Virus record (IMG/VR): IMGVR_UViG_3300033143_004212 | Span: 19,405-83,404 of that record | Reading direction: 5' to 3' (one strand) | DNA: 64,000 bases | Origin: a virus | In this document: positions 99 to 58,957 of the stretch, one piece after another | How positions within the stretch are numbered: position 1 is the stretch's first letter | Layout of the letters: each line of letters opens with the position of its first letter | Notes under the pieces: generated by a model | What the model saw: only the letters and a program-made list of their open reading frames with translations | The model's database searches: none | Told to the model about the DNA's origin: nothing | Translations under genes and position numbers: made by a program

Positions 99-626
99 AT
101 GGAAGAAGTATGGAAAGATATAGAAGGTTATGATGGTGATTATCAAATTAGCAATAAAGGAAATATAAAAAGTTTTAAAAGAATTAAAGATGGTAAGTTA
201 TTAAAAGCAACTGTAGGTAATACAGGATACTGCACAGTGAAACTATCTAATAAAGATAAAGAAAGAAAGACTTTTAGAGTTCATCGCTTAGTCGCTTTAC
301 ATTTTTTAGAATTAGTAGAAGGGAAAGATAATGTAAACCATAAGAATGGAGATAAAACAGATAATGATGTAAATAATCTTGAATGGTGTACTTATAAAGA
401 AAATAATATTCATGCTCGAAAAACTGGACTTAATAAAGCAAATGGAGAAAAACATTATTGCGCTAAGTTAACAGAAGAAAACGTAAAATATATTAGAGAA
501 AATTATATTAAAGGAAGTAGAACATTTGGACAAGGTGCTCTTTCAAGAAAATTTGGAGTGTCTCAATCGCAAATCTTTAATGTAGTTCATAATATAACCT
601 GAAAAAAGAAAAATAAAAAACAATAA
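99..626 (+). CDS. NUMOD4-HNH homing endonuclease (TGA 600-602 read as Trp)
   Basis: N-terminal EVWKDIEGYDGDYQISNKG (NUMOD4) and VHRLVA...VNHKNGDKTDN...NLEW (HNH). Readthrough gives HNITWKKKNKKQ then TAA. Confidence 0.85.
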
Positions 627-685
627 GAGTTCCAAGTGATGTTATTTTCTCTTGGGACTATGAGTCGTTAAGGAGAGAACCAGAA

Positions 686-1786
686 ATGGCAGAAAAGAAA
701 AAATGTTCCAATTGTCAAAGAGAACGTCCTTTAAAAGAGTTCTGAAAATCAAATAATCTTGAAATGTATCCCGGAGATGGTAAAGTTGACCTTTGCCGCT
801 TATGTCTTACTAAAGGTGTCAAAGATTTGAATGACTGAGCAGGAGTACGTGAAATATGTAAAGTGCTAGATTATCCTTTTATTCAAAGTAAATGGGATGA
901 CGTAGTTAAGAAAATGCGTGAGAATGCGGAAAGATACGATATTTCAACAGAGAAGAAAAAAAGAGAAACTATTCGTAAGACTATTGGTGACTATGCGCGA
1001 ATAATGAAATTAGGAAAATATATGAAAATGACTTACGAAGATTCCGATGAGATAGTGACTCTTGTCGCGGATGCGACTGACATAGCCGTTGAGCAGAAAC
1101 GAAAAGAAAAAGAACAAGAATTAGAAGAAGTAAGAGAAGCTAGTATGGGAAGTTTTTCTATAGAGGAAAGAGCCTTTCTTATGGCGAAATGGAGAACTAC
1201 AGATTTAGAAGATATGTTATGGTTAGAGAATTATTATTTAAGTATGATGGAAGATTTTGAAATAACTACTACTTCACATAAAGATTATTTAAGAAAAATT
1301 TGTAAAATATCTTTAAACTTAGATAAAGCAATTGAAGCGAATGATGGAGACAATATTAAAATATTACGTGCTACTTATAGTGCTTTTATGAAAGAAGGAA
1401 ATTTTACAGAGCAACAAGCTAATAAAGATAAATCTAATTTTGTTTCTTCTTTTGGAGAACTTGCGGCATTCCTTGAAGTAGAAGGTTTTGTAGAAATGAT
1501 AGATTTAACTTTCCCAAGAGATATGGTAGATAGAACGATAGGTAACTTAAATTCTTATATAAGAGACCTTGTTTTAAATGAGAGTGGACTTGCGGATTTA
1601 CTTGAATCTACAATCCAACTAATGAATGCTCCTGATGAAGATGAAGATGCTGATTATGAATACGGTTCTGATTATATGTGAGAAGATGATTTAGAAATAG
1701 ATTGGTCAAAAATAGATGAAGAGGAAGAAGATGAAGTTGACGAAGAAGTAAAAGAAAAAGTTGAAGGTGAAAAGAAAGATGAATAA
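686..1786 (+). CDS. Putative terminase small subunit / packaging protein with N-terminal CxxC...CxxC, 366 aa, 3 TGA (743, 836, 1679)
   Basis: SD AGGAGA before ATG 686. Reads MAEKKKCSNCQRERPLKEF[W]KSNN...CRLC in frame with the 863 ORF, with an acidic tail to TAA 1786 overlapping the TerL start. Function inferred from position. Confidence 0.65.
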
Positions 1787-3572
1787 TCTTACAGATAAAA
1801 GAAGACAACAAATTTTTCTTAGTGTAAAACAGCAAATAGATGAAGCAAAATTAAGAAATAGTAAAAGCAATAAAAAAGAAGATATTACTGAAGCAAGAGT
1901 AGTTGGTATAAAAGACGAATTGCGCAAACAATTTAGTTTTTGGAAAGCTTATCCCGATTTATTTTTGGATACTATCTTACCTAAAAGTTCTAGTTTTAAT
2001 TTTTATTTTTATCAAAGATTATTTCTTAGAATAGCAATTCGATATAAACTTGTTTATGCGACTTTTACTCGTGCGTTTTCAAAATCTTTTTTATCTATTA
2101 TTATAGAATATTTAAAATGTATCTTTTACCCCGGAGCGAAGCAATTTATTACAACAGGTGGTAAAGGACAAGCCGCGCAAATTGCGGAAGAAAAAATAAA
2201 AGAGATATGAGGAATTTGACCAGTATTAAAAGACGAACTTGTAAAATGGAGTTTCCAAAAAGATGGCGTTAAATTAGAATTCAAAAATGGTTCTATTCTT
2301 GATGTTGTTGGTATGAGAGATTCTACTCGTGGAGGACGTAGACATGGAGGTCTTATTGAAGAAGCTATACTTATTGATGGTAATCGTTTAAATGAAGTAA
2401 TTATTCCACTTATGAATATTAGTAGAACAGGTATGGATGGAGTTAAAGACCCAAGAGATGTAAATAATAAAAGTCAAATTTATGTTACGACTGCAGGTTA
2501 TAAGGGCAGTTTTGCATATGAGAAATTAATACAAGTTTTATTATGGCAAATAATTAAACCTAAAGAAGCTTTTGTACTTGGTGGCGATTATCGTATACCA
2601 GTTATGCATGGACTCTTGGATAAAAACTTTATTAAAGAATTAAAAGCAGATGGAACGTATAATGAAATGTCATTTTCTAGAGAATATGGATCCAGATGGT
2701 CAGGAACAAAAGATGGCGCTTTCTTTGATGCTGAAATCATATCAAAATATAGAGTTTTAGGTAATTCAGAGATTCAACCTGATGGAAGAAGTAGTAAAGA
2801 TACTTTTTATGTTTTTGGTATTGATGTTGGTAGACATAGAGCTCAAACAATAGTAGTTATTATTAAAGTTACTTTAAATCGTACAACTGGTGCTTGGGAT
2901 AAAAAAATAGTAAATTTACATGTATTTGAAGACATGCATTTTGAAGACCAAGCCGGAGAAATTAAATATCTATTTAATATATTCCGTCCTAGAGCAATTG
3001 CGATAGATGGTACTGGTTTAGGTACTGGATTAATAGACTTCTTAGTAAAAGAAACAGATTATAATGGAGTCTTATATGAACCTTTTGGTGTGCTCGGAGA
3101 AGATTATAAAGAGGATTATGAAGCTTATATTGTTCATAATACTATTCCAATTCTTTATATAGTTAAAGCAACTCCTGCTATTAATAGTGCAATGCATTCA
3201 AATATATATTCACAATTAACAGGAGGTCGAATTAAATTCTTAGCAAATGAACGTATTGCTAAAACTAAGTTTGCTTCTAAAAAAGGTTGGTCTAAATTGG
3301 CATCTGATAGTAGGGCAGAAAAGTTAAAACCATTTACTTTAACTTCTATATTAAAAGAAGAAATGCTGAACCTTAAAAGAGATGGGGAAGGAGCCGATAT
3401 TAGGTTAAAACGAGTTCATTCTAAAATTGGAAAGGATAAATTTTCTGCTCTTGAAATTGGATTATATTATATTTATCTTAAAGAAAGAGAAAAGAAAACT
3501 AGACGTGTTGGAATTGAAAGCATAATAAAAACGAAAAAGAAAAAGAAAAAAACTTGGAAGAGATGGGGATAA
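1779..3572 (+). CDS. Terminase large subunit, 597 aa, 2 TGA (2208, 2217)
   Basis: ORFs 1761 and 2313 are in the same frame, joined by EI[W]GI[W]PVLK. Motifs TRAFSKS (Walker A-like), RGGRR..GLIEEA (Walker B), GIDVGR, IAIDGTGLG and KDKFSAL (nuclease). Confidence 0.9.
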
Positions 3573-3645
3573 TAACTAAATCCCTTCTCTTTTTTATGAA
3601 AATGTGGTATAATTATATAAACGGTAGGAGGTGTAAAAAGATAAA

Positions 3646-5121
3646 ATGCTTAATAAAAGAAATGGAAATAAAAGCAGATATGCACAAGGAAATGGAGAAA
3701 ATGATTTAGAACCTTTAAAAAATATGAAGGCTATATATGATGCTCCAGAAATTCCTAAATATAATTTTACAGAAGATGCGATTAGAACAGCAATAAATAA
3801 TTTAGATGTGCCAAAAATGAGGGACATTTCTTTGTATTTCTATTATGCAAGTAAGAGTTATGGTAGATTAGTAGATTATTTCGCTAATATGTTAACTTTT
3901 GATTATTTAATTGTCCCAAAAAAACAATATAATCAAAAGAAAACAACTCCTGAAAAAATAGAAGAAGAATTAGCTGTAGTTTTAGATGTGTTTAAAAAAA
4001 GTAGAGTAAAACAAGAATTTAGAGAAATAGCTAGAAAAGTTATGATAGAAGGAGTATTTTTTGGATATTTAGTTTTTGCTTCTGATACTTGGGAAGTTCA
4101 AGAATTACCTTATAAATATTGTGAAACGAATTTCCAATATATGGGAATTCCAATTATAGAATTCAATCTAGAGTACTTTGATAGAGAGTTTAGAGATGAA
4201 AAATTAAGACTTGTAGTTTTAGAAACATATCCAGATGAAATAGCATCTGCTTATGATGTTTATAAAAATAATGGTGGCGATAAAATTTTTTATGTAGAAC
4301 CTAAACATTCTATGGTATTTTCTCAAAATGATAATCTCATTCCTTATTTGATCAGTATTATTTTAGATGTTATTAGATTTAATAATTATAAAGCTATTGA
4401 TGAAATTAGAAATGAACAAGAAATATTAAAACTTATAATTCAAAAGCTTCCAGTTGCAAAAGATGGAACTTTATTATTCTCTCCAGATGAAATGGAATAT
4501 TTACACAATATAGTTGCAGATATGATAGATGAAATGCCATCAATTGACTTGATTACTTCATATGCTGATGTAACAACTGAGAATCTTCAAGACCAAAAGA
4601 ATACAGCGCAGAACTCAATGAATAATGCGAAAGATAATATTTATGCTGAAGCAGGTGTTAGTTCTCAATTAATGGATGCTCAAGGGAATATTGCATTGGA
4701 CAAATCTATTAAAATAGATGAAGGTGAAATGTTTAATTTATTAGAGGCGCTAAAAAATTATTTCCAATTTGTTTTAGATGTAGAATATACATCTGCTAAA
4801 TTGTCTTATAATTTAATAATGCCTGAATTAACTATTTTTAACAGACAAGAATGGTTTGACAGATATCTAAAAGGTGGTCAATTTGGCTATCCTAAACTTT
4901 TAGCTTCTTTAGCTATGGGAATTGATCAATTAAGTTTTTATGATTTGTTAGAATACGAAGATGGTATTCTAAAATTAACAGAAAAAATGATTCCATTAAA
5001 ATCTAGTCATACTGAATCTTCAAATGGTTCAGATGCCGGAAATGACGATAAAGGTGGTAGCCCTGGTACTAAAGATGACAAAAAAGATGACAAAACAATA
5101 GACAATCTGAATAATGATTAA
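3646..5121 (+). CDS. Portal protein
   Basis: 491 aa directly after TerL, ending IPLKSSHT plus a low-complexity tail. Assignment mainly from synteny. Confidence 0.75.
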   Translation: MLNKRNGNKSRYAQGNGENDLEPLKNMKAIYDAPEIPKYNFTEDAIRTAINNLDVPKMRDISLYFYYASKSYGRLVDYFANMLTFDYLIVPKKQYNQKKTTPEKIEEELAVVLDVFKKSRVKQEFREIARKVMIEGVFFGYLVFASDTWEVQELPYKYCETNFQYMGIPIIEFNLEYFDREFRDEKLRLVVLETYPDEIASAYDVYKNNGGDKIFYVEPKHSMVFSQNDNLIPYLISIILDVIRFNNYKAIDEIRNEQEILKLIIQKLPVAKDGTLLFSPDEMEYLHNIVADMIDEMPSIDLITSYADVTTENLQDQKNTAQNSMNNAKDNIYAEAGVSSQLMDAQGNIALDKSIKIDEGEMFNLLEALKNYFQFVLDVEYTSAKLSYNLIMPELTIFNRQEWFDRYLKGGQFGYPKLLASLAMGIDQLSFYDLLEYEDGILKLTEKMIPLKSSHTESSNGSDAGNDDKGGSPGTKDDKKDDKTIDNLNND

Positions 5122-5131
5122 GGAGGTAAAT

Positions 5132-6574
5132 ATGGGAAAAAGAGATACAACAAAATTCTCTAATTGCTCTGTTAAAGTAACTTTTGTAGAAACAAAATAT
5201 GATTCAGATACGAATCCTCTTTTTTCAAAAGTTAAAATTAATTTCCTTTATAAGGGAATGAATAGGAATGGAAGTTATATTTCTAAACGAGTTGCGGAAA
5301 AAATGGGAGCGGCTATTAGTTACACTCCAATCATTGGAGAATTTTTAAAAGAAAAAGAAGATTTTGGAACACATGGTGGAAAATTAACTATTACAAGCGA
5401 AGATGTAATTTATGAAGAAACAACTGTTCCATACGGAGTTGTTGGCGCGGCTGACAATCTTTGGTGGGAAGACGTAGAAGATGATGATGGGAATGTACAA
5501 TCATATCTAACTACTTGAGGTTATTTATGGACTAAAAGATATCCTGATGCTGAAGTAGTTTTATCTGATAATAACTGGCAATCAATGGAGCTAGATAATG
5601 ACAGTGTGAAAGGGAGATGGATTCAAAAAAAAGATAGTGAAGATTTCTATTTTAAAATTGATGAAGCTCTTATTAGTGCTTTCTGCATCTTAGGACCTGA
5701 TGTTCGTCCTGCTTTTGAAAGATCGCAAGTTAAAAGTTTTTCACTAGCAGAAAATATGGGTAGCAGTTTTAAAGAAGAGTTTGAAGAAATGAAAGAAGAT
5801 TTTAAAACTTTCTTATTTACTTTGGGCGAAAAAGAACAAACTGATACTGATAATCTTAATAATGATTTAGAGGGAGGAACAGATTCTATGTTATTTAAAT
5901 TAAATATCGAAAATCCAAGTTCATTATTCTCTAGTTTAAATCCAGAAGATATTGCAACTAAGATCATCGTTAATGAAACAGATAACACTGTTACTTACTT
6001 TGATTTAGAAGACGGTAAATTCTATGCTAGACAATTTACTATGAATGAGGAAGAAGAGATAGTTTGGGCAGAAGAAGAACCTGTAGTTTATGAATATGGT
6101 CAACTTCCAAATGCTGAATTAGAGCAATCTAATGCAGAATTAACAGAAGATGTCGCTATTTTAAAAAATGCAGAAATCGATTTTGAAGCTCAAATAGAAA
6201 CAAAAGATGGCTCTATAGTAGAACTTAATAAAACTGTTGAAACATTAAATGGAACAATAGAAACATTAAATACTTCTATTGGAGAATATGAAGAATATAA
6301 AAAAGAAAAAGTAGCAGAAGAGAAAGAAAGTTTAATTGCAGGATTTGCAGAAAAACTATCTGAAGAAGTTATCGAATCAATCGAAAAAGAAATTAATAAT
6401 TTCACATTAGAAGAAATCGAAGCTAAACTTATTCGTGCTTTTTATGAAGAAAACAAGGGTGATGATATAGACAACTCTAAATTCACTCATAATAATAAAC
6501 CACATAAATCAAGTAATACACCTGATTGGTTTAAAGCTGTTAAAACAGTGGTTAATAAGAACGAAGAAAAATAA
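5132..6574 (+). CDS. Prohead protease-scaffold fusion, 480 aa, TGA at 5516
   Basis: AGGAGG before ATG 5132. ORFs 5114 and 5585 share a frame. Motifs G.NRNGSYISK, YLTT[W]GYLWTKRY, QSMEL and FCILG..V.PAFE, with an acidic coiled-coil C-terminus. Confidence 0.75.
5888..6574 (+). CDS. Probable nested scaffold protein from an internal in-frame start
   Basis: Strong SD GGGAGGA precedes in-frame ATG 5888 (MLFKLNIE), giving an acidic coiled-coil product. Confidence 0.5.
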   Translation: MLFKLNIENPSSLFSSLNPEDIATKIIVNETDNTVTYFDLEDGKFYARQFTMNEEEEIVWAEEEPVVYEYGQLPNAELEQSNAELTEDVAILKNAEIDFEAQIETKDGSIVELNKTVETLNGTIETLNTSIGEYEEYKKEKVAEEKESLIAGFAEKLSEEVIESIEKEINNFTLEEIEAKLIRAFYEENKGDDIDNSKFTHNNKPHKSSNTPDWFKAVKTVVNKNEEK

Positions 6575-6595
6575 TTTAAGGGAGGAAATCACATT

Positions 6596-7183
6596 ATGGC
6601 TAGATTAGCAATGAGTACGACTTATGGCGTATTAGAAATGAACAGAGTTGCGGCTGTAGATACTAAGCAAGTATTTTCTCAACTTCCATTAGATGCAACA
6701 GACTTTGCAAGCATCGCTTGTGAAAATGGTATGGTATGCGTTTACGATGAAGTTGCAGGAGCAGTTAGATTACCTGATGAGGACACAGGTGTAGTTATTG
6801 AAGAAGTACAACTTGTTGGAACTCATGAATTCTATTACGAAAATGCCGAATTAGGAGAATTTGCAGTATCAATCGAAACAACTGCAGTTAAATACTCTAC
6901 TATCGGACATGCGGGAACTGCCGCAGATCAATACACTTACCCAGATCTATACAACTTAACTGTTGGAGATACTTTTACTACAAATACTGTAGATTTAGAT
7001 TCTACTGCTTTCGCTGATACTTCAGTTGGAGAATATTTTACAGCTAGAGCTACAGGATTACTATTTTATGATGGAGCTACTGCTAATGCAGGTTCAGGAC
7101 TAATTTGTGTAATTATCAAAAAGTATACAGTACCAAATGGAGACGAAGCTTTCAAACTAAAAGTAGTACAAGTAAGAGTGTAA
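6596..7183 (+). CDS. Head decoration/cement-like protein
   Basis: Lies between scaffold and capsid genes, with a strong SD and codon usage like a highly expressed gene. Confidence 0.55.
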   Translation: MARLAMSTTYGVLEMNRVAAVDTKQVFSQLPLDATDFASIACENGMVCVYDEVAGAVRLPDEDTGVVIEEVQLVGTHEFYYENAELGEFAVSIETTAVKYSTIGHAGTAADQYTYPDLYNLTVGDTFTTNTVDLDSTAFADTSVGEYFTARATGLLFYDGATANAGSGLICVIIKKYTVPNGDEAFKLKVVQVRV

Positions 7184-7220
7184 TCAAAAAATAATTAATT
7201 AATTGGGAGGTTAAGAACTT

Positions 7221-8219
7221 ATGAAATTTGAAGAAGTTAGAGCGTTAGCGAAAAAAGTAGTTGTTGCTAAGCCTAATATGACGTTTACTTTCGATGGTGA
7301 GACTGTTAATACAGATCAAATGATGGAAGCATTGAAAGATGGACTGAATGAATTAGCAGGCGACTATAAAGCGTATAGACGTAATAAAGTAGATGTCTTC
7401 GAGTTAATCGAAGAAACTGCAGATCTTTATCTACCTGCGAAAGTAGAAGCTTCTATTGGTAGATTTGCAGAAATTAAAAATACAGAACATGGACAAAAAC
7501 CAAAGTTCTCTTTAAAAGTTGGTAAAGGAAGAGGTAAACAATTTGTAACAAAAGTTGGTACTTCAGGAATTTACGAAGTATTCAGACTTGACAAAGTTGA
7601 ATTTACTGTTGAAACTGACAGAGTTGGTGGCGCAGGAGTCATCTCTTTAGAGAGATTATTAACTGGTGCTGAAAACTTAATTGACATCTTAGATGTTATT
7701 TTAGAAGGTATCGAAGATACTATCTATGGTCAAGTACAAACAGCTTTACAAGCATCTTTAACAGCAGGTCCTGCTAGTAACTACGGTTCTAATGCTGGAT
7801 TCTCAGCAACAATCATGCAAGGATTATTAAATACAGTTTCTGCTTACGGAAAACCTGTTATTTATTGTACTCCTGAATTTGCGGCAACTATCGTTCCAGA
7901 TGATGGATGGATAGGAGCAGTAGATATGACAGAAAAAAGAGAATATGGATATATCGGAAAATGGAATGGTGCTCCAGTTAACGTTATGCCACAATCTTTT
8001 GTTGATGAAACTAACCTAGTTAAAGTTTTCAATCCTAAATTTGCTTACATTATCCCTGCAGGAAAAGAAAAAATCGTTAAGGTTTTATTCGAAGGTCCAA
8101 CAGTGGTAGCAGAATTAGAAAACAGAAACAGAACTAGAGAAATTTCAGCTACTAAAAAAATCGGTGTTGCAGTACTTTATAACAACCAATTCGCTCTTTT
8201 CCAAAATACTAGTCTATAA
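7221..8219 (+). CDS. Major capsid protein
   Basis: 332 aa at the canonical position, with biased codon usage and YRRNK..FELIEE and G.IGKWNG.PV segments. Confidence 0.8.
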   Translation: MKFEEVRALAKKVVVAKPNMTFTFDGETVNTDQMMEALKDGLNELAGDYKAYRRNKVDVFELIEETADLYLPAKVEASIGRFAEIKNTEHGQKPKFSLKVGKGRGKQFVTKVGTSGIYEVFRLDKVEFTVETDRVGGAGVISLERLLTGAENLIDILDVILEGIEDTIYGQVQTALQASLTAGPASNYGSNAGFSATIMQGLLNTVSAYGKPVIYCTPEFAATIVPDDGWIGAVDMTEKREYGYIGKWNGAPVNVMPQSFVDETNLVKVFNPKFAYIIPAGKEKIVKVLFEGPTVVAELENRNRTREISATKKIGVAVLYNNQFALFQNTSL

Positions 8220-8222
8220 GAT

Positions 8223-8251
8223 TTGTGTTTTTAGAGAAAGTGTAGTATAAT
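8223..8251 (+). promoter_or_regulatory. sigma-A-type promoter
   Basis: TTGTGT-17 nt-TATAAT upstream of 8332. Confidence 0.5.
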
Positions 8252-8274
8252 ATAAGTACAAGGAATAAAAAAAT

Positions 8275-8300
8275 ATGGGGATAATTAATTTTATCCCCGT
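8275..8300 (+). terminator. Hairpin after the capsid gene
   Basis: GGGGATA-ATTAATTT-TATCCCC. Confidence 0.6.
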
Positions 8301-8331
8301 AATTTTACTATAGAGAAATAAGGAGGAAACA

Positions 8332-8940
8332 ATGGCTAAAAAAGATATTTTACCAACTACTTTATGTAAGGTTATTAGTATAACACCTGGATTGAATGGA
8401 TTAACTGCTCCATCTTTTCATTATCATATCGTTTTTAAACGTCCTGGACAAGTAATGCGAGTTAGATTTGAGATTTTACAAGATGCACTCCATGCTGATG
8501 ATTCTTATATGTTAAATCACTGTTTAAGAGTTATGGATGGAGATGTGCGAAGAGAACTTGGATTAAATGATGATATCGAGTATAGTTTAAGTTTAGCAGA
8601 TGTAGAAAAAATTATTTTATCAGGAACGCTTGAAGAATTAAGAGATTTATTCACTTATGGACCAGAAGGATATGCAAGATTAGCGGCAGATTTAGCTGTT
8701 AGAAAAGGTATGGATAGTACTGCTAAACTTGAATTAATTCAAGAATATAGTGGAATAAATGTTATTTTCCAAATTAAAGAAGGAATAGGACTTGATGAAA
8801 TAGAGGCAGAAGTAGAAAGAAAAACTGAAAGAAGTTATGATACAGTTAAAAAAGATGAACCAGAGGAAGTAGATGAGATTGAAGAAGAAGATAATAAAGA
8901 AGCTGCTTTACCTAAGTACACTAGAGTAGATAAGAAATAA
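8332..8940 (+). CDS. Hypothetical head-module protein
   Basis: 202 aa ORF with AGGAGG SD. Confidence 0.6.
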   Translation: MAKKDILPTTLCKVISITPGLNGLTAPSFHYHIVFKRPGQVMRVRFEILQDALHADDSYMLNHCLRVMDGDVRRELGLNDDIEYSLSLADVEKIILSGTLEELRDLFTYGPEGYARLAADLAVRKGMDSTAKLELIQEYSGINVIFQIKEGIGLDEIEAEVERKTERSYDTVKKDEPEEVDEIEEEDNKEAALPKYTRVDKK

Positions 8941-8943
8941 TTT

Positions 8944-8967
8944 TAACTGGCGTACGCCAGTTTTTTA
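8944..8967 (+). terminator. Intrinsic terminator
   Basis: AACTGGCG-TA-CGCCAGTT followed by a T run. Confidence 0.65.
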
Positions 8968-8983
8968 TTGAGGAGGTTAAGAG

Positions 8984-9433
8984 ATGGTAACAAAATTTCA
9001 AGATGTTTATGATTTATTCTTTGGTACTATTACAGATGATCTTTATATAAGCATGACGATAGAAGATACAAAAGCTGATGCACAAACCTTCTTATTACTA
9101 TCAATGGGAGAATTTAAATATTGTAAATTAGATCTTTTAGATTATAATTTATCTTTAAAATCTTGGAATATAGAATTAACGCTTGATGAAATGACTCATT
9201 TAGTATTTTTAATGAAAAAGTTTTGGTTAAAAAGACAAATTGATGATACTAATATAACTGATCAAAAAATTTATTCAGATAAAGATATAAAGGTATATTC
9301 TCAAGCAAATCATTTAGATGTTTTATTAAAAGCTTATAAAGAATCTAAATTAGATGTGAGAAAAGATAAAGATAGTTATAATAGAATTGATGGAAGTAGG
9401 AATGCTCGTTTAGGAGCAACAGCAGGCAAGTAA
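8984..9433 (+). CDS. Head-tail adaptor-like protein
   Basis: 149 aa with F.DVYDLF...ITD at the N-terminus and YSQANHL. Neck position. Confidence 0.55.
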   Translation: MVTKFQDVYDLFFGTITDDLYISMTIEDTKADAQTFLLLSMGEFKYCKLDLLDYNLSLKSWNIELTLDEMTHLVFLMKKFWLKRQIDDTNITDQKIYSDKDIKVYSQANHLDVLLKAYKESKLDVRKDKDSYNRIDGSRNARLGATAGK

Positions 9434-9450
9434 GGAAGTAGGTAAGAGAT

Positions 9451-9747
9451 ATGAATAATGTTACTTTTATAAAATCAGATTGAGAAGTCTACCTACGTTG
9501 GTTAAAAAATCAGATATATAAATTACTTCCTTTAAGAGAGGAAAAAGGAGAATGGAAAAAATTTGCTGAATCTCTTATATGAGAATTAAAAGGAGCAGAC
9601 AATATTCAAAACAAAGTACCATTAATGAGTTTGATATTTAAATTATCTGCATTAACCAAAATGGAAGATTTTAGAATTTATAGAAAGACTATATTTGAAT
9701 GTATAAATTTAATTAATAAATTCGAATTAAAGCTAGGTGAAGAATAG
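9451..9747 (+). CDS. Neck-region protein, 98 aa, visible only with TGA=Trp (9481, 9580)
   Basis: MNNVTFIKSD[W]EVYLRWLKNQIYKLLPLREEKGEW...LI[W]ELKG...YRKTIFECINL... ends TAG 9747, abutting ATG 9748 and filling the gap exactly. Confidence 0.8.
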
Positions 9748-10962
9748 ATGGCAAACTTTTTTGATTTATACAAACGAAGAATGGCGATTAAAGGTAATTC
9801 TTTTTCAGAGAAAATGGAAAAAAATGCTAAAAAGGTATATGATACGTATATGAAAGATGCAAAAATAGAAACTGCTTATATTAATTTAAATACGTATGAA
9901 GTTGCAATGATTATAGATAAATCTGATGAAACTTTAAAACAATATATAGTTCTTGCAGATAAAGATTCTGTATTTGCAACTGGAGTAGTTTTTGAAATAG
10001 ATTATGTATTTTATATTATTTTACATGAAGAAGAAACTGCTCATGACCAGTATTTTAAAGGTTATGCAAAGAAATGTACTGACAATATAAATATAAAAAC
10101 TGAAACAGGATTATATAATTATTGGGTATATGTTGAAGGTGCAAATAAAATTAATATGAAAAGAACTGAAGAAGGCAATATAATTATAGATGACAACCAA
10201 GAGACTGGTAAAGTTATTATGAATAAAGGAGAAGGTTTTGAAAGTATTAAACCTTTACAAACTAGATTCTTTATAGGACAAGACGTATATAAAGTAACTG
10301 GAAAAAGTACATTAAGAGATTTAGGATATTTAACAGTACAAAGTGATGATATTAATACATTTAGAGATAATTTTGCGATTGGAATTGCAAATTATTATGA
10401 TGAAGTTACTCCTGAATACAATTACTATATCTCCGCAGAACTTGTTCCAGATGTTGTAATAACAAAAGATACAGAATATGCTATATCAGATATATTAGAA
10501 ATTGTAATAAAAGATAATTTAGGTAATCTAGTAAGTAAACCTTATACAATAGATGTAATTGCTACGGAAATTAATATAGATGGAAGTAATATTACTCCTT
10601 TAGAATTGGGAAATCATACTATTTATTTTACTTTAGATGATGATAAAAATTCAAGAGCTACAGTTGTAATTGATGTAGTAAAAGAAGGTACTACTGTTTA
10701 TGATTTCACTGGAGAAGATACTTTAATTTGGTCAGAAGAATCTGATTATATTATAACTAAAACAGTCGGTGGAACTCCTACTCCTGCAGTTTGGGTATTT
10801 ACTATTGAACAGGGAGATAGTTTAGTTGACTTAGTAATTATAGATGACTCTTCTTGCACTATTACCGCGAAAGAAGATATAGAAGTTGGAGATGTTGTTC
10901 TATTGGCAAAAAGCGGTGCTGAAGAAGTTAGAAAGAAAATAAGAATTAAAGCATGGTGGTAA
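9748..10962 (+). CDS. Head-closure/neck protein with C-terminal Ig-like beta domains
   Basis: 404 aa with a beta-rich C-terminal half. Assignment from synteny. Confidence 0.5.
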   Translation: MANFFDLYKRRMAIKGNSFSEKMEKNAKKVYDTYMKDAKIETAYINLNTYEVAMIIDKSDETLKQYIVLADKDSVFATGVVFEIDYVFYIILHEEETAHDQYFKGYAKKCTDNINIKTETGLYNYWVYVEGANKINMKRTEEGNIIIDDNQETGKVIMNKGEGFESIKPLQTRFFIGQDVYKVTGKSTLRDLGYLTVQSDDINTFRDNFAIGIANYYDEVTPEYNYYISAELVPDVVITKDTEYAISDILEIVIKDNLGNLVSKPYTIDVIATEINIDGSNITPLELGNHTIYFTLDDDKNSRATVVIDVVKEGTTVYDFTGEDTLIWSEESDYIITKTVGGTPTPAVWVFTIEQGDSLVDLVIIDDSSCTITAKEDIEVGDVVLLAKSGAEEVRKKIRIKAWW

Positions 10963-10976
10963 AAGGAGGTTAAAAG

Positions 10977-11471
10977 ATGGAACGCTCAAGAACAAATAGA
11001 GCAGTTTATAAAATGAATGCAAGTTTAAATAAAATAGCAAGAATACTTGCAGATGATGAAGAATTAAGAAAATTATTATTTTATCCATCAGATACTTTAG
11101 ATGATAATTTAGTAGATGTTACTAAAACAGAAGTAATAAATAAATGTACAGATATAGTAGCAAATTATCCTGATAGTATGGAATCTATTGGTGGTTTTTT
11201 AGTTATTGGGATTCCAGAAGGACATAGGAATAAAAATAATCCAAAATATTTTGATATCGTTCTTACTATTGATATAATGGTACATGAGGGCAGTGAAAAA
11301 TTTGGAGTAGGATTAAAAGCTCTTGAAATTTTTAATTTAATTGATTATTTGCTTACTGAAACAGATATACAGGGTATTGGTTTATTAAAATTAAAAGATT
11401 TCTTTTATCAAGTTTATACGCCAACTGTAAAAGGTTATACAATTGTTTTTACTAATAGAGATATGAACTAA
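10977..11471 (+). CDS. Tail terminator-like protein
   Basis: 164 aa with DEELRKLLFY and IQGIG.L. Assignment from synteny. Confidence 0.45.
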   Translation: MERSRTNRAVYKMNASLNKIARILADDEELRKLLFYPSDTLDDNLVDVTKTEVINKCTDIVANYPDSMESIGGFLVIGIPEGHRNKNNPKYFDIVLTIDIMVHEGSEKFGVGLKALEIFNLIDYLLTETDIQGIGLLKLKDFFYQVYTPTVKGYTIVFTNRDMN

Positions 11472-13117
11472 TGGGAAGTTTATTTCATAGAGATAAATAT
11501 AATAGAGTTTATAGTTTAATGAGTAAGTATGAAGAAGTAAAAGCTTGATACAGTTATGTAGGTGCTTATGCAAATCATGGATATGATGGAACTAATCCAT
11601 TATATGTTTCTATTTTTTCTTATATAGATGATGGGAATAAAGAAAGATCAACTAATATTAGAGGAACTAGTGCTAGACAATATTATATTTATAATCAAGG
11701 ATTATCTTTAGCAGATATAAATATTCCCAAAAGCAGTAAAGAAAAAGTAACATCAGCTTCTCAATTTAAAACTATGCTTGATTCAGAAGTTGATAAATAT
11801 TTATCTAAAGTAGCAGGTAAATATAAAGGTATGCCTGATGCGGTAGCTCATAAAATTTTAGAAAGAAGAGTAAAAGAACATCAAAAAGATTTAGGTATAC
11901 ATCCAGTAGGTTCAAATGAAGAATTTAATAGAAGATTCATTAAAGCAGTTTTTAGAAATGCTGAAATCGGTCCTCAAAGAGAGATGCATGATGAAATTAA
12001 AAAAGCTTTTAAAGGATTACAAACTTTTATTAATAAGAATATAGAGCAAGGTGCCGCAGAAATAAAAGCAAAAAATGATATTGGTTCTGGAAAAAAAAAT
12101 TATTATGTTTTAGAAATAAAAAATGGTGTAACAAGATTAGAAAGAGAATATTATAAATTATTAAAAAAATTAGCGATTACTATTTCAAAAGCTTCTGAAG
12201 AGGGTGCGTTAGATGCTGGAGCAGAAGCTAAAATAATTACATTATTAAATTCATTGAAAAGTAAAGTACTTGCTTATGAGAAGAAAGCAAATCGCAAACC
12301 TGTTAAAGGAACTACAATTCGTTATATTAATTCTAATGGAGTAAAAATGGATTTAAAAGATTTAACGGTAGGGAAAGATAAAGATCGTAAATTACATTTA
12401 ATAAATTTGGTTTCAAGTATTTTAGGTAATGCGGCAGGTCTTGGTTATGAAATTTCTATTTTGGCGGCGGCATCAGCCTTGATGGATAGAGGTCAAAAAG
12501 ATATAGAAAAATTTAGAGACGTTTCGCATGCTGAAATGAAAGGTAGGATACTTGATTTATTAACAAAAGACTCTCGAACTTTTAAATCAAAAAAAGGAGC
12601 AAAAAAATTCTCAGGAGCGGTTACTGGAGATTTAGTTATAGATGGAGTAACTTCAAAAGCAGACGTAATGTTTAAAATAGAAGACATAGTAAAAGGAACT
12701 CATCAAGAATTTAAAATTTCTGCTAAAAATTATAAGAGTTCTAATTTTAAGCTTCATACTGGAAAAGTACAAAATTTTGCATCAGCTATCGCCGCGAAAG
12801 GGAGAGAAAAAGAAGCTTATATTACACGTTCAATGTTTGATACTATCTCTTGGTATCCTGCTTATTTTAATACTGATGGTAGCGGTAATTATAAAGGGGA
12901 TACTCAAAACAATTCTGTATTTAATGTTTTTAGAACAATGCTATTATTGAATTTAGATTATTTTTATGGGTTTGATATAACTCATTTATTTTCTTCAAGG
13001 GATCAAAATCCTACAGCAATAGCAGATGCAATAATGAAAAGTACTATTAAAAGGATTCAAATTAATGGAGATTCAATTAGTTTAACAGTGAAAGCGGTGA
13101 AGAAGGATGTACAATAG
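11471..13117 (+). CDS. 548 aa basic protein with a possible PD-(D/E)xK nuclease motif, TGA at 11546
   Basis: ATG 11471 overlaps the previous TAA and is in frame with the 11774 ORF through one TGA. C-terminal half has GYE...SKADV...ISAKNY. Confidence 0.6.
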
Positions 13118-13967: not shown

Positions 13968-13980
13968 GGAGGAACAATCC

Positions 13981-14805: not shown

Positions 14806-14822
14806 TATTAAAAATTAAATAT

Positions 14823-14846
14823 TTGGAGAGATTAATTTCTCTCCAA
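14823..14846 (+). terminator. Hairpin after the tail tube gene
   Basis: TTGGAGAG-ATTAATTT-CTCTCCAA. Confidence 0.6.
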
Positions 14847-14877
14847 TAATTTACTTTAGAGAAGAAAGGATGAATAA

Positions 14878-15729: not shown

Positions 15730-15741
15730 GCTCTAAATGGA

Positions 15742-31988: not shown

Positions 31989-32016
31989 TTCTATCCTCCT
32001 TATCCTATATATAATA

Positions 32017-43292: not shown

Positions 43293-46200
43293 CTATGACT
43301 CCCCATTATTTCTTTCCCAAATGAGAGAAATGCTTCCATCTTCATGTATATCTGTAATTTTATAAATAGTATGACGACCACTATTTTTATAAGTTTTAGC
43401 AACGAATTGGGTCTCTCTTCTAAAACCAGTAATTAATAATTTGTTTCCACGCTTAAACCAAGAACGTTCAACAATTTTCTTTTTGTTTGAACCAGGTATT
43501 CTTTCTGATATTTGTTTATCGAAAGCAGCGAATTGGTCTCTATACATTTTTACTACTGCAATTCCGTTAGTAGTTAATATAGTTACAGTATGTCTTTGTT
43601 TATCTTTATCTAATACTGTACCTGCTATAGTATCTAATTTATATATAGGTCTATCAATTCCTTTTATTCTATAATATCTGACAATTGTTGGTTCTGTAGG
43701 TAAGTTATTGAACTCTATAACACCATATGATTCATTATCCATACCAATTAATTCATGTTCATGATGGTAGTAGCAAATAGATTCCATTTCCCAATGAGAG
43801 ATTGTTCCACTTGCATATTTTTCTCATAGCTCATTGAATAAAGAATTATTATAATCTATTAACATTTGATTATGATTTTTTTTAATGAATGCTTTGATTG
43901 GAGCCATTATAGGTTGATATACTTTATCCCATAGTTTCTTTGAGACGTATAGCGCTCCTTCTATCTCTTCTACGAATGCTTCGGGGAATTCAAAAATATT
44001 ATAGTATCCTTCTTTAATAGTATCATCAAATAAGTAATACTCAACTTTATTTTCTCCTATTAAATATTTATTTCCTCTTCTTCTTAAATATTTATTAAAT
44101 TTAAAAACTCTTTTTTCCTTAGCAAATTCATCTGGAATAAATCCACCATCTATTAATGCATTCGCATTTTGCATAGTTAACTTTAATTTTGGTGCGCTTG
44201 CATATCGTAAATAATCTTCTAGAATCTCTTCTCTAGGTTTTTGTTCTAGTTCATCAAATGATCCACCTTTAATTAGTGAAATGATTTGTGTTTTATTAAC
44301 TTTTACTTTGTCATAAAAATCTCACATAGATTCATAAGGTCTATTTTCAATAATTTCAGCAACTAAATCTTGACCAATTCCATTCATACTTTTTAATCCA
44401 AATAAAATAGAATCAGTTTCTGCATCAGGACTAAAATCGAAATTGGCTCTATTAATGTCAGGATAAACAAGCACAATACCATTCTCTTTCATTTTACTGA
44501 TCGCGGAAGCAATAGCACCATAATCTGTAGGTTTAGGTTTTAAAGCTTCAGAATCTTCTAAAGAACCGGCATTAACAGATAAGCAAGCAGTATTCCAATA
44601 AACTGCAGGATATAAGAATGCAAGATTCAATTGCGCTACTGCAATTACTGTATAAGGTAAAGTATGATTTTTAGAGAATGAATAACCTGCTTGAGGTAGA
44701 ATACATTCTTTTCATATATACTTCAATAAATTTATAGATGTTCCTAATTCCAAACCTTTCTCTTTAAATAACTCTTTAACTTTATCCATTAAAACTTTTT
44801 TCTTCTTAGCCACTGCTTTTCTTAATTTATTCGCTTGTACAACATTGAATCCAGATATTCTTTTATCCATTACTATTTCCATAATAACTTCTTGAGTATC
44901 TGCTACTCCATAGTTTTCTCCTAAATGCTCTAACATTATTTTCATTTCATCTTTAGTTAATCCATAACTATCCATTACTCTATACCAAAGATTAATATCA
45001 GCTTTAAATCGCACATATTTATCTATAGGTTGTTCTTTTCCTTGCTCTGCCATTAATCTCATTAAGTTATTACCGATTGCGCCCTCTTTAAGAGAGAAAG
45101 GTCTAATCTTCATAGCCGCTTGTAGTCCAACAGAAGTACAGTATTGGAATAAATCTAATACTTTATTTTCGTGCATTAGTTTCCACATTTCTCTATTATC
45201 ATAAATTAACTTGTCAGGATGTAGATAGAATTCATATGTTTCTTTTAAAGAATTCTTCCATTCAATATATCCATCTTGAGATAGTAATTCTAAAGTAACT
45301 CTTATTTTATCCATAGCTTTAACTGTAAGGAAATCATATTTTAATCCACCTAAATAATCGCTATCTGCCATATTGAATTGTGTAACTGGTAATCCACTTG
45401 GAGCTCTCATCATTGCATTCCAATCAGTAAAATCAGAAGAGAAGATATAAACTCCACTTGCATGACTAGAACGTTTATTAATAAGTCCTTCGATTCCAAG
45501 CGCAACTTCTTTAAGTCTTGGATATCTTTCTACTTCTTTAATTATTTTTTCTAATGGTTTCCTTTCTTTTTCTTCGTCACCAAAGAAGCATTCTTTAAGA
45601 GACCAGTTGAAACCTCTTTCAACAGGAATTAAACTAGAAAGATATTCTGCTGTATCAATATCAATTTTTAATCCTCTACATGCAGTAAGCATTGCAGATT
45701 TTGATTTCTCAGTACCAAAAGTAGCGATATTAAGAATCTTTTTGTAACCAAGTTTTTCCTTAATAATTCTAAGTATTCTTGACCTCTTGGAAGCTTCAGT
45801 ATCAAAATCGATATCAGGAATCTCTGGTCTCTCAGCTGATAAATGTCTCCAATGTGGTAATTCATGTTTTATAGAATCAATTTGAGTAATATCCATTAAA
45901 TATGCAGTTAAGAATCCGTTTACAGAACCACGTCCTGGACCAACTAAACTATTACCACCATCGTCTGCCCATACCAAATTCATAATGTATTCCATTGTAT
46001 TATAATACTGACTTAAGTTTTCATCCATGTTAATACCTGCACCGATAATTTCTCCTATTTCTGTATCTATTCTTTTTAAATATGAATCACTCCATAAATC
46101 TTTTTCATATAATCCATAAAGATTTCTAATTCCAAAATACATTTCTTGTTCATCTTTAGAATTTACATATGCTTCTATATTAGAATAATTATCTACTGCA

Positions 46201-47231
46201 TAAATTATTGATTCTCGAAATTTTTTATCTTGAAGCATTTTATTCTCTATTTCATTCAATTTTAATTTTTCACGTATATTTATACTAGGTACTACTTGTT
46301 TATGGAATAAATCATAGTTCTCGCACATATCAGAAATCTTGATAGTATTATTAATTATATCTTCTATTTGATCATCTTCTAATGAAAATTGTAAGTATTC
46401 TATTATTTCATCTACATCCATCATATAAGTAGTAGAATAGAAATCATCTACTTCTCTATCTCCTTGTTTAGAATTTAAATACGCTTTATGGACTTCTCTA
46501 TCTTCTTTAGTTAGATAATGAGAATCTGTAGTTACAATAACTTTTACTCCATAAGCATTAGCGATTTGATATGCCAATTTATTAAAAATATTTTGGTCAT
46601 CTTGCGCAGATGGTTGAACTTCAACAAAGAAGTCTTCTTTTCCGAACACTTCAATACAGAAAGTCATAAAATTATCTATCCATTGTTTAGATTCTAAGCT
46701 TCCTTCACTTCTATAATAGTTTAGAATGGCTTGTGGAAATTCTCCTCCTAAACAAGCAGTCGATCCTATTATATCGCCTTTATATTTTTTCATAATTTCA
46801 ACTAAATGAGCTTTTTCAGTTGGTACTCTTGTCATTGGTCCTCTTGTAACAAAAGAATTTATCCAAGCTTCACTAGAAAGAAGTCTTAATGCTTCATGAC
46901 CTCTTTTATTTTTTGCTAATAGAATAAAGTGATAAAACATTGCTTTACCGCCATCTTCATATAATTGTTTCATTGCATCTACATTATCTATTAGGTATAT
47001 TTCATTTCCTAAAATTAATTTAAATTCTCTATCTAATTCCATTTCTTTTAAATGTTCGATTGCTTGGACATGTGCTGATAAGACTTCATGGTCTGTAATC
47101 GCTACTCCGTTGCTTCCTAACCCATATGCTCTATCCATTAAATTAGAAACTTTATTAATACTATCTAGTAATCTTATATTTGAATATTCTGTATGATTAT
47201 GTAGGAAGGGCAATTGATTTTTATTTTTCAT
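43293..47231 (-). CDS. dnaE: DNA polymerase III alpha subunit (DnaE-type), 1312 aa, TGA at 44712, 44322 and 43824
   Basis: Four track ORFs lie in one frame, joined only by TGA. PHP motifs HNHTEYS/AITDH, GPGRGS, PDIDFD, HASG, KYDFL, YI[W]..Q.GYSFSKNH and a C-terminal OB fold. Confidence 0.93.
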
Positions 47232-47255: not shown

Positions 47256-47284
47256 ATTATATCAAATTTTTAATTATAATACAA
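47256..47284 (-). promoter_or_regulatory. sigma-A-type promoter for dnaE
   Basis: TTGTAT-17 nt-(TG-A)-TATAAT. Confidence 0.5.
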
Positions 47285-47768
47285 CCGATTTTGTTTCAAA
47301 AATACGTCTTTCTGTTTTTTTGATTTTATTTTTCATAGCAGTTGTTGCTAATTTGTCTGCGCGTTCGTTTCCTAAAATACCTGAATGACCTTTAACTTTT
47401 ACAAATTCTACTTTATCAAAAAAAGTAACTAAAGCATCTAATATTATTCATAAATCTTTATTTTTAACTTCTTCTTTTTTAGAATTTTTTCAACCATTTC
47501 TTTTTCAGTTATTTATCCATTTTTTATTATACGCATTAGCTACATAAGAAGAATCTGTATAAATAATAACTCTTGTTTCTATCATTTGCGTTCATGTAGA
47601 AATTTCTTCTAATGCTTTTATTACTGCGGTTAATTCCATTCTATTATTTGTTGTTTTTTCTGAGTATCCCATGTGACCCATATTACCGATACAATATCCT
47701 CAACCGCCTTCTCAAGTTCCATTCTGTGAACAAGCACCGTCTGTATAAATTTCTATTAAATTTGTCAT
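47274..47768 (-). CDS. rnhA: Ribonuclease HI, 164 aa, 6 TGA (47712, 47700, 47592, 47505, 47490, 47448); absent from the ORF track
   Basis: IYTDGACS, GG[W]G, TTNNRMELTA, YTDSSYV, WINN[W]KRNG[W]K...VKNKDL[W] and VKGHSG..GNERADKLA. Confidence 0.95.
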
Positions 47769-56470: not shown

Positions 56471-56989
56471 TTACTTTCTTCGAACAAATGTTATAAAGCG
56501 TAAATCGAAATCCCTGTCTTCGTTTTTCTCCTGGACGTGAGAGTTTTGATCTATAAAATCTTCTGCTTTTATTTTAGGAAAAAAAACGTCTACTTCTTTA
56601 TACTCTTTCATAAAAACAGTTAATTCTATTACATCTGCATATTGATAAAATTGTTTATAAATACTTCCTCCACCAATAATAAAGATGTCTTCAGTCTTAG
56701 CTAATTCTAATATAGTTTCGATATCACGAGCAATCATATCTGCACCTGTAAACATGCATTTGGCACGTGATATTATTATATTTTTTCTTCCTTTTAATCC
56801 TCTAGTTGGTAATTCACCTTCTTCTTCTAATCTCATTGGAAGAGATTGTCATGTTTTTCTGCCCATTACAACAGTTTTGCCCATTGTTATTTTTTTAAAA
56901 TGAGCCATGTCCTCAGGAACCATTGCTAGAAGTTCTCCTTTATTGCCTAACCCCCAATTTTTATCTACTGCCGCGATCATTGTAATCAT
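56471..56989 (-). CDS. folA: Dihydrofolate reductase, 172 aa, TGA at 56849
   Basis: MIAAVDKNWGLG, PEDM.HFK..T.G..VVMGRKT[W]QSLP, L.GR.NIIIS, IIGGGSIY and DVFFP. Confidence 0.93.
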
Positions 56990-57852
56990 TATATCGCCAA
57001 CTCAAATTTAGGTAGTTTCTTCATCGGTTTGTAATCAACCATTTCAAAATCATCTATTGTGAAATCATAGAAATTATCTGATTTTGGATTGAACACTAAT
57101 ATAGGATGAAGTTCTTTTTCATCTAATAGAGCTTCTTTTAATTCTATTTCAAAACCTCTATCTCTTAATATACGTGCGGCTTTAATATGTCTGTCATATA
57201 TGTGAAGATTGTCTACAACATGTACAAATTTTCCTGGCTTTAAGCCAACTGCTTTTGCTATCATCATCATTAATGCAACGTATTGAATTTTATTTATATG
57301 ACCTGCAACTAAATAATCATTTGAGCGTTGTGTTAATTTCATATCTAAATATCCATCTGCTCTTACCATCCAAGTAGTTGAATAGGCACATGGATGTAAT
57401 CCTTTTGTTTCCTCTAAATCTGCATATTGATACATATTCATAATATGTCTACGTCCCATAGGAGATTCTTTTAATCCTTTAATTAACTTATCAATTAATC
57501 CATATTTCCTAATAGTCGCACCATATCTTTGACCTATTGTTCCGTCTCCAATATCTCATTCATCCCACCAACGAATATTATATTTTTCTTTTAATAAAGC
57601 CAAATCATTCGACTGGTCTTGATAAATCCAAAGAATCTCTTTAATTCCTGCTTTTCAAGCTACAGGTCTAAGAGTCGTGATTGGAAATTCGCCTTTTGAA
57701 ATATCATACTCTTCTGTAACGAATGTAGTATAAATAGTATGTGCAGGAGATCCATCATGCCAAACAGGTCTAACTTCAAAATCTTCACTAGTGTATCCAT
57801 TTTCTAATAAATGTATTATATTATCAATGAACATTTTATCTGTTTTTAACAT
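56989..57852 (-). CDS. thyA: Thymidylate synthase, 287 aa, TGA at 57655 and 57556
   Basis: FPITTLR.VA[W][15 protein letters not shown][W][22 protein letters not shown] and HIYDRH. Confidence 0.93.
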
Positions 57853-57927: not shown

Positions 57928-58179
57928 TTACGCTTCGTCTGCAACTACAGCTAATCCTTCTTCAGAAAGTTTTAAAAACTTAATAGTTTTTTCTTTTCCT
58001 TCAATCTCAACAGTAGCTTCCTCTCTGTAAGCCCAACCTTTTTTAACGAAAGAGTTGAAAGAGCCTATAACTGATCTAGGTCCGATGTTTAAAGCTTTTG
58101 CAACATCATTATGAGTCATGTCTTCTCCGTTATTGTCTTGTAAAAATACTAAAATTTTCTTTGTGCTTTCTTTCATCAT
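57928..58179 (-). CDS. Small winged-helix protein
   Basis: KKILVFLQ...DVAKAL.I.PRSV.GS..SFVKKG...LSEEG, similar to the 56026 product. Confidence 0.7.
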   Translation of the reverse strand: MMKESTKKILVFLQDNNGEDMTHNDVAKALNIGPRSVIGSFNSFVKKGWAYREEATVEIEGKEKTIKFLKLSEEGLAVVADEA

Positions 58180-58295
58180 AGTGTTTGTTTCTCCTTTTTA
58201 ATTTAATTTGTTTGTGAATAATCATTTATTTTTATGATTATTATTACTTATTATTTATTATATTAAAAGTAAATATTTATTTACTTCTTATATAT

Positions 58296-58324
58296 ATTAT
58301 AACATTTATTTATTCAAAAGTCAA
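58296..58324 (-). promoter_or_regulatory. sigma-A promoter
   Basis: TTGACT-17 nt-(TG-T)-TATAAT. Confidence 0.75.
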
Positions 58325-58342
58325 TTATTTCAGTTAAATAAT

Positions 58343-58957
58343 CTAACTATCTATATATTCTCATCTATATCCATAAGCAGTTTTTCGTTGACCGTTACAT
58401 ACCTTACATATATGACTAACTTTTTTTACATCTCCGAGTTGTCTTGCTGCTTCATTTACTGATTCATAAGTTTTTAATACTTTTAAAGTATTCTTATCTA
58501 ATTTAGCTACTTTTCTTTTATGACCATCAATCTTAATATTATTCCCTTTTAAGATTCTTCTTATCATTTCTTTGCAAGTATTAAAATACTCAGCAGTATT
58601 ATTAACATGTTTTAACTCTTTGTATTTTTTAATAACTTCTTTATCAGTATATGGAAAAGTTCTTGTGCCTTCTCCACCAAGCGTTGCATTATAGCCATTA
58701 TTATAAGAATCATATTCTTTAATAAATTCAATTTCCATTAATTCTAATAGACCTTCTTCATACTCTCCAATTAATTCAACTGAAAAATTTTCAATTCCAT
58801 ACTTATTTATTGCTCTATATAGAGGTCTATGCTTATTATTTTCTCTTTTTGAGTTATAAATATGCTGTTTATATCTTTCTTTAATAGTTAGATATGTTTT
58901 TCCTATATAAATCTTGCCATTCATTTTATTTATAATTTTATATATTTTACCAATCAT
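58343..58957 (-). CDS. GIY-YIG homing endonuclease with NUMOD1 tail, TGA at 58361
   Basis: KIYKI.NK.NGKIYIG, AI.KYG..NF, GYN.T.GG, and KTAYGYR[W]EY to TAG 58343. Confidence 0.85.

Follow-up and report, generated by a model that had tools for sequence, protein, structure and literature searches.

Can TGA serve as a sense codon in a virus whose genes are repeatedly interrupted by this triplet, and, if so, for which amino acid, through which tRNA, and in what kind of host? This question is raised by IMG/VR virus record IMGVR_UViG_3300033143_004212, a single linear contig of 83,404 bp. Bases 19405-83404 of the record, a stretch of 64,000 nucleotides, were analyzed and are called the window here; positions refer to the window unless the contig or another record is named. 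The guanine-plus-cytosine (GC) content of the contig is about 30%, and CheckV estimates its completeness at about 56%. Genes for packaging, head, tail, and lysis occupy the plus-strand arm, which extends to approximately 37.6 kb, and the minus-strand arm of the window carries replication and nucleotide-metabolism genes. A collinear relative with 50-80% amino-acid identity, IMGVR_UViG_2597490295_000013 (JRFF01000053.1), is referred to as the sister phage. An earlier reading of the window without database searches (the sequence-only reading) had proposed that TGA encodes Trp throughout this phage and that its host is a walled Firmicute.

Open reading frames (ORFs) were called greedily and without overlap, with TGA as a sense codon, giving 123 ORFs on the contig. 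The window genes contain 43 in-frame TGAs in 24 genes, close to the approximately 41 in about 22 genes on both arms counted in the sequence-only reading. The plus arm holds 23 of them in 16 genes and the minus arm 20 in 8 genes. Another five TGAs belong to the gene cut by the window start. TAA ends 76 of the 123 contig ORFs and TAG the other 47; TGA is needed as a stop in none, which bears out the earlier remark that the other genes end in TAA or TAG. A comparison of coding densities, proposed together with the recoding, points the same way. The density rises from 0.882 to 0.940 when TGA is read as sense, above the controls in which TAG (0.884) or TAA (0.916) is read as sense. In this genome, TGA has the same sense as TGG and is never needed as a stop. 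It makes up 20% of the Trp codons and is spread over structural, lysis, and replication genes.

Reading through TGA restores full-length proteins on both arms. The DnaE-type DNA polymerase III alpha subunit (43293-47231, minus strand) becomes a protein of 1312 aa, with the Pfam PHP, pol3-alpha, finger, and HHH domains in order and TGAs at codons 840, 970, and 1136. In the B12-dependent ribonucleotide reductase NrdJ (40405-42735, minus strand; 776 aa), the Pfam domains are ordered across two TGAs, both of which are TGG in the sister phage. The large terminase TerL (1761-3572, plus strand; 603 aa) has PHROG matches on its N and C halves and TGAs at codons 150 and 153. The N- and C-terminal DUF6558 domains of the distal tail protein Dit (21579-22409, plus strand) flank two TGAs, one common to the sister phage, and the tail-associated protein Tal (22428-25262, plus strand) has YOMG_N and Prophage_tail domains and one TGA. 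Read-through also restores RNase HI (47274-47768, minus strand), thymidylate synthase ThyA (56989-57852, minus strand), dihydrofolate reductase DHFR (56471-56989, minus strand), the tape-measure protein (15822-18941, plus strand; Pfam PhageMin_Tail), and an Amidase_3 protein (33152-33844, plus strand; Pfam, 85 bits) with TGAs at codons 27 and 229 of 230. The sequence-only reading had joined the fragments of TerL, DnaE, NrdJ, ThyA, DHFR, Dit, and Tal in this way, and they prove to be full-length; the order of domains is intact in DnaE, NrdJ, RNase HI, ThyA, DHFR, Dit, and TerL. The large genes show neither TAA/TAG interruptions nor frameshifts. A protein collection already includes the 241-aa read-through product of the RuvC-like resolvase gene of this contig (37672-38397, minus strand), indicating that a gene caller had already applied a TGA-sense table to it.

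The amino acid was sought in alignments in which TGA was masked as X to avoid bias. RNase HI, where TGA accounts for six of the seven Trp codons, was aligned with PDB structures. Three of its six TGAs fall at an invariant W and one in a W/Y column, as expected from the conserved Trp positions named in the sequence-only reading; the remaining two lie in variable loops. In ThyA, the best PDB thymidylate synthase matches, 1b02 and 1bko, have W at both TGAs. In DnaE, TGAs 840 and 1136 correspond to W in nine of nine standard-code phage relatives from IMG/VR, and TGA 970 stands at a variable D/Q/G position; one of the DnaE TGAs aligns to Gly in the Thermus enzyme. Both TGA columns of TerL are W in a standard-code relative (L002). 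All four Trp codons of the RuvC-like resolvase, including the penultimate codon, are TGA. Their columns read W (with one F), W (with E in two distant homologues), W, and W. The single TGA of DHFR, in the MGRKT[x] motif, had been taken as a conserved Trp position. This holds for the sister phage, which has TGG there, and fails for the three PDB homologues shown, which have F or A. Columns that are mostly non-Trp would speak against the recoding; Trp or an aromatic residue dominates, and no TGA column has a Gly majority among the aligned proteins. Judged by these alignments, TGA is read as Trp genome-wide, rather than as Gly or selenocysteine.

The sister phage shares the same code. It contains 164 TGA and 278 TGG codons (37% TGA), and none of its 210 ORFs ends in TGA. 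Codon pairs at orthologous positions (this phage/sister) are TGG/TGG in 105 cases, TGG/TGA in 34, TGA/TGA in 15, and TGA/TGG in 13. Where TGA faces any other sister codon, the residues vary (F, C, Y, and others, no Gly), similar to those facing TGG. All four TGAs of the RuvC-like gene are TGA in the sister phage as well. The phrog_3314 protein of unknown function (686-1786, plus strand) has three in-frame TGAs, of which one is common to the sister phage and one faces TGG. Distant relatives with 34-36% GC behave differently: 20-25% of their stops are TGA, they show no gain from TGA as sense, and they carry tRNA-Trp(CCA). The sister genome is circular and hence complete at about 128 kb, since a metagenome contig that is a second record of it (LGVD01000731.1, 128,148 bp) runs across its end into its start, with 0 mismatches over 22.3 kb. 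The 15 common TGA positions and the lack of TGA stops in this independently assembled genome indicate that the TGAs are not due to chance or sequencing error. From the comparison of these genomes, we consider that the recoding is real, assigns TGA to Trp, and is specific to this phage lineage.

Two other explanations of the TGAs are rejected by the same data. If they were artefacts, such as systematic G-to-A errors or hypermutation, or marked the pseudogenes of a decaying element, they would hardly recur at 15 positions in the sister phage with 47 more TGA/TGG swaps in both directions. The large genes would also not be expected to be free of TAA, TAG, and frameshifts, nor TGA to be wholly absent as a stop. 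We regard this explanation as extremely improbable. TGA could instead encode glycine, as in code 25 of a Gracilibacteria or Absconditabacteria host, or selenocysteine. The DnaE TGA that aligns to Gly in the Thermus enzyme and the default ARAGORN label of the sister tRNA with anticodon UCA, "SeC", would fit this. However, the dominance of Trp or aromatic residues in the TGA columns does not, and the tRNA is 74 nt long with a short variable arm, unlike tRNA-Sec. The chance that TGA has either of these meanings is accordingly minimal.

Several TGAs lie close to the ends of genes. The four near-terminal TGAs reported in the sequence-only reading are all present, and a fifth is found at 18921 in the tape-measure gene (codon 1034 of 1039). 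TGAs within the last 10 codons amount to 5 of 52 in this phage and 15 of 122 in the sister phage, against approximately 4% expected; the excess relative to TGG is not significant. Such an enrichment may be left over from former TGA stops. That the near-terminal TGAs are residual stops was rejected, as the excess is non-significant and two of the five are clearly sense. In the GIY-YIG/NUMOD-like homing endonuclease (58343-58978, minus strand), the NUMOD-like domain match (residues 169-207) continues through the TGA at codon 206 of 211. The penultimate TGA of the RuvC-like resolvase is a conserved W, distant homologues included. The NUMOD4/HNH homing endonuclease (99-626, plus strand; Pfam NUMOD4 and HNH_3) has its near-terminal TGA at 600 (codon 168 of 175), where the codon of the sister phage is TCT.

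Evidence on how TGA may be decoded comes mainly from the sister phage. Neither ARAGORN nor the Rfam tRNA model finds a tRNA on the contig, which is incomplete, and the contig has no RF-1 domain. The sister phage has a cluster of 24 tRNAs that starts at the point matching the contig end, just past the gene for the peptidyl-tRNA hydrolase Pth2. This enzyme, of the archaeal/eukaryotic type (63309-63743, minus strand; Pfam PTH2, 127 bits), is encoded by the last complete gene before the contig end. The cluster includes a 74-nt tRNA with anticodon UCA (JRFF01000053.1:115102-115175; Rfam, 36.6 bits) and no tRNA-Trp(CCA). This tRNA(UCA) has good D and T arms, an A1-U72 pair, discriminator G73, and a normal short variable arm. 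The complete sister genome encodes no release-factor (RF-1) domain and no tryptophanyl-tRNA synthetase (TrpRS)-class synthetase. The expectation that a phage with this code might carry tRNA-Trp(TCA), RF1/RF2, or TrpRS is therefore borne out for the tRNA, through the sister phage, and not for the two proteins. Further copies of the tRNA(UCA) were searched for by a pattern search of IMG/VR and through the neighboring GyrA-like protein in IMG/VR and metagenomes; both led to the sister phage alone.

Other genes near the tRNA region may be related to translation. A 70-aa, very basic protein (61997-62209, minus strand) adjoins a metallophosphatase, a YkuK-type RNase H-like protein, and Pth2. It is 72% identical in the sister phage and ends in ...HKSKRDYNRKGKHKK, which we take to resemble the RF2-recruiting tail of ArfA, although the protein has no Pfam match even at E = 10. 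Pth2 may bear on peptidyl-tRNA drop-off at recoded UGA. Past its tRNA cluster, the sister phage encodes an Rnl2-type RNA ligase and a metallophosphatase (L022:8904-9812 and L022:7534-8217). Such enzymes typically belong to tRNA-repair kits that counter anticodon nucleases.

As for the host, a single link emerged: the genome bin "Candidatus Izimaplasma bacterium HR2" includes the sister contig. Izimaplasma is described in the literature as wall-less and from deep-sea methane seeps. The HR2 bin contains prfB (472 bits, cut-off 370), indicating that HR2 terminates at UGA and uses the standard code. The bin has no Cas1 and no penicillin-binding protein (PBP) transpeptidase, and it has no Amidase_3 genes beyond the two of the phage contig. 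In a second Izemoplasmatales genome, a contig of 2.2 kb encodes a distant portal (23% identity) that has two in-frame TGAs at aromatic positions; this genome also has prfB. Four other portal matches were found in 400 genomes of the class, none with TGA. Two different TGA-containing phage contigs thus occur in two RF2-bearing genomes of the order, which speaks for a host there. On the other hand, both phages keep two Amidase_3 genes, the sister phage also has an SLT domain, and Amidase_3 occurs in only 5 of 151 Izemoplasmatales genomes. This conservation and rarity argue against an Izemoplasmatales host. One of the two amidases of this phage is TGA-free (31158-32045, on the minus strand opposite to its neighbors; Pfam, 151 bits), and its nearest named homologues are amidases of Paenibacillus and Aneurinibacillus. 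Composition binning could easily have drawn the 28.5%-GC phage contig into a low-GC bin.

A blastn search of window 1-20000 against the 151 Izemoplasmatales genomes, with two candidates scored per genome, gave matches of 27-33 nt only. The four best were rejected as spacers of clustered regularly interspaced short palindromic repeats (CRISPR) because no repeat arrays lie nearby, so the prediction of the host from spacers, as proposed in the sequence-only reading, yielded none among the genomes searched. A separate observation was made at the phrog_3314/TerL junction (1714-1780), where a stretch of 40-100 nt has blastn matches of 73-89% in at least 15 Izemoplasmatales genomes.

The walled Firmicute host of the sequence-only reading is thus not established: the amidases point to it, yet the sister phage is binned in a wall-less Izimaplasma without PBP transpeptidase. 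The sigma-A promoters cited in its favor do not discriminate, as Mollicutes too use sigma-70-family promoters. The host candidates are walled Bacillota or wall-less Izemoplasmatales. Either would use the standard code, and a mismatch between phage and host codes is therefore likely in both cases. The phage and host codes probably differ, as had been suggested; the minor TGA share of Trp codons, the sister tRNA(UCA), and RF2 in both candidate genomes support this. That TGA=Trp phages with their own tRNA(UCA) infect free-living, wall-less, standard-code Izemoplasmatales seems to us rather unlikely.

The distribution of TGA along the genome was considered as a trace of its decoding. The early block of small minus-strand genes to the left of the window (contig 4100-17300) contains 3 TGA and 38 TGG, and two of the three TGAs are in one doubtful ORF. 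Outside the block, the TGA share is 20-23% (Fisher p approximately 0.02, from rounded counts). TGA is over-dispersed among genes (permutation p < 0.0002), and the TGA shares of orthologues in the two phages are weakly correlated (rho 0.37, p 0.04). This distribution is consistent with the timing model of Borges et al. without being strong evidence for it.

From these observations, the following explanation can be proposed. In this lineage TGA has changed from stop to Trp, and it would be decoded by a phage-encoded tRNA(UCA), as in the sister phage. The copy of this phage would lie in the unassembled part of the genome just past the contig end. The host TrpRS would charge the tRNA, because the sister phage encodes neither TrpRS nor a release factor, and the charged tRNA would have to outcompete RF2 of a standard-code host. 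The leftmost early block, nearly free of TGA, could then be translated before the tRNA accumulates. We consider this explanation, taken as a whole, fairly probable.

A number of points weigh against it. Since the contig itself has no tRNA, the suppressor is deduced from a relative. The tRNA(UCA) of that relative is irregular: its acceptor stem has two U.U mismatches, and its anticodon stem has no more than three Watson-Crick pairs. Of the tRNAs in the cluster that pass the Rfam family cut-off, it scores lowest, and it is not recognizably derived by sequence from the tRNA-Trp(CCA) of relatives, its best match being tRNA-Gln (69%). The depletion of TGA in the early block is weak, and the contrast is weaker still in the sister phage (21% early, 34-39% elsewhere). 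The host code is deduced from candidates, although both genomes with related TGA-containing contigs have prfB.

The irregular tRNA leads to one competing explanation, in which TGA is read without a dedicated phage tRNA. A near-cognate host tRNA-Trp(CCA) or a phage factor that weakens RF2 would suffice, and the sister tRNA(UCA) would be a degenerate pseudogene. Its mismatched stems and low score fit this explanation, as do the small basic protein with the ArfA-like tail motif and Pth2 next to the tRNA region. Suppressor tRNAs are also found in just 35% of code-4 phages (Borges et al., bioRxiv 10.1101/2021.08.26.457843). However, leaky read-through would give almost no full-length product for genes with 4-6 TGAs, such as those for RNase HI and the RuvC-like resolvase, the tRNA(UCA) occupies the place of the missing tRNA-Trp in a broad set of 24 tRNAs, and the basic protein has no Pfam ArfA match. 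We find decoding without a phage tRNA unlikely. The other explanation concerns the host: the phage may simply use the code of a code-4 host of the Mycoplasmatales/Entomoplasmatales type, with no phage-specific recoding. The low genome GC (30%) and the single host hint, to a mollicute-related order, are in its favor. A phage of such a host is expected to use TGA predominantly, as in Mycoplasma phage P1 (GC 27%), in which TGA is 39 of 41 Trp codons (95%). The 20% and 37% of the two phages at similar GC do not show this pattern. A minority of TGA among Trp codons argues against a code-4 host and is a better fit to phage-driven partial recoding. A tRNA(UCA) is encoded by the sister phage itself, RF2 is present in the linked Izemoplasmatales genomes, and two conserved peptidoglycan amidases are unexpected in a phage of a wall-less host. 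A code-4 host therefore has, in our estimate, a similarly low probability.

Phage-driven recoding in this lineage can be placed among its relatives. The contig represents approximately 55-65% of a large siphovirus (about 130-150 kb) grouped with Enterococcus EF1/VRE9-like, Lactococcus 949-like, and phAss-1-like phages. The CheckV estimate for the sister phage (84%) is too low for the group, given that this genome, of about 127.8 kb, is either circular or circularly permuted; if the two are alike in size, the contig covers about 65% rather than 56% of its genome. By portal, the closest cultured phages (25-31% identity) have genomes of 115-170 kb and infect Enterococcus, Lactococcus, Brevibacillus, Mammaliicoccus, and Bacillus; the gut phage phAss-1 is equally near. 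Among them, Enterococcus EF1 and VRE9 (about 140 kb), Lactococcus phage 949, and Brevibacillus phage Sundance are of similar genome size and infect walled Bacillota, with an identity too low for the host to be transferred. GenBank phages gave no megablast match to 20 kb of the contig, and a search of sequencing runs with a 10-kb stretch listed no run.

Two loci differ in arrangement between the two phages. In the terminase region (99-3572), the HNH/NUMOD4 endonuclease lies 5' of the phrog_3314 gene. In the sister phage (JRFF01000053.1:31708-35347), an endonuclease homologue (38% identity) separates the phrog_3314 gene from the C-terminal part of TerL. In PHROG, the N and C halves of TerL belong to different families. 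The arrangement suggests mobile-endonuclease or split-gene variation at the terminase within this phage group. In this phage (15822-21549), the tape-measure gene, which ends ...IY[TGA]ISKRN followed by TAA, is distinct from the gene that follows it (859 aa). In the sister phage (L019:7400-13243), the same two genes form one open frame of 1947 aa, and their junction contains no stop codon at all.

Phages with code 4 on Firmicutes that use the standard code are already published, and this phage adds a lineage to them. Borges et al. (bioRxiv 10.1101/2021.08.26.457843) predicted such hosts for code-4 phages, including virulent Agate phages of about 127 kb. They reported suppressor tRNAs in 35% of code-4 genomes and an RF1/TrpRS module in some Jade phages. 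As in these gut phages, TGA aligns with Trp here and many genes contain one or more TGAs in frame. A phage-encoded suppressor tRNA, through the sister phage, and a genome size similar to that of Agate extend the likeness, which is drawn by description. A standard-code host is predicted in their case and deduced in this one. Unlike Jade, the sister phage lacks the RF1/TrpRS "code-change module". Unlike in these gut phages, TGAs occur here in replication genes as well as late genes. Agate and Jade are from the gut, whereas this lineage is known only from a marine source, the sister phage being in a metagenome-assembled genome of a methane-seep organism. phAss-1 (OQ749652, 135,976 bp) is also large, and its portal is 29% identical to that of this phage. 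It is from the human gut, and its recoded codon is TAG, not TGA (PMC10607447). Mycoplasma phage P1 (NC_002515), which has a code-4 host, is similar in having in-frame TGAs and no TGA stops. However, it is only 11.7 kb long, with no amidase among its annotated products.

The recoding has practical and biological consequences. The contig needs translation table 4; otherwise about one fifth of its genes, TerL, DnaE, NrdJ, and RNase HI among them, look broken. Code-4 phages have so far been described mostly from guts, and the sister phage was recovered in the genome bin of an organism of methane seeps. In view of the complete sister genome, one irregular tRNA(UCA) seems sufficient for recoding without a phage release factor or TrpRS. 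With a TGA share of 20-37%, the recoding seems to be at an intermediate stage. Binning in Izimaplasma conflicts with the peptidoglycan amidases, which poses a concrete, testable host question. If Izemoplasmatales were the host, the conserved amidases would need a function other than lysis of a host wall. Izemoplasmatales are relatives of the code-4 Mollicutes. Phage tRNAs that decode UGA would then circulate in the kind of lineage in which UGA=Trp arose, and would be a possible vehicle for the origin of code 4.

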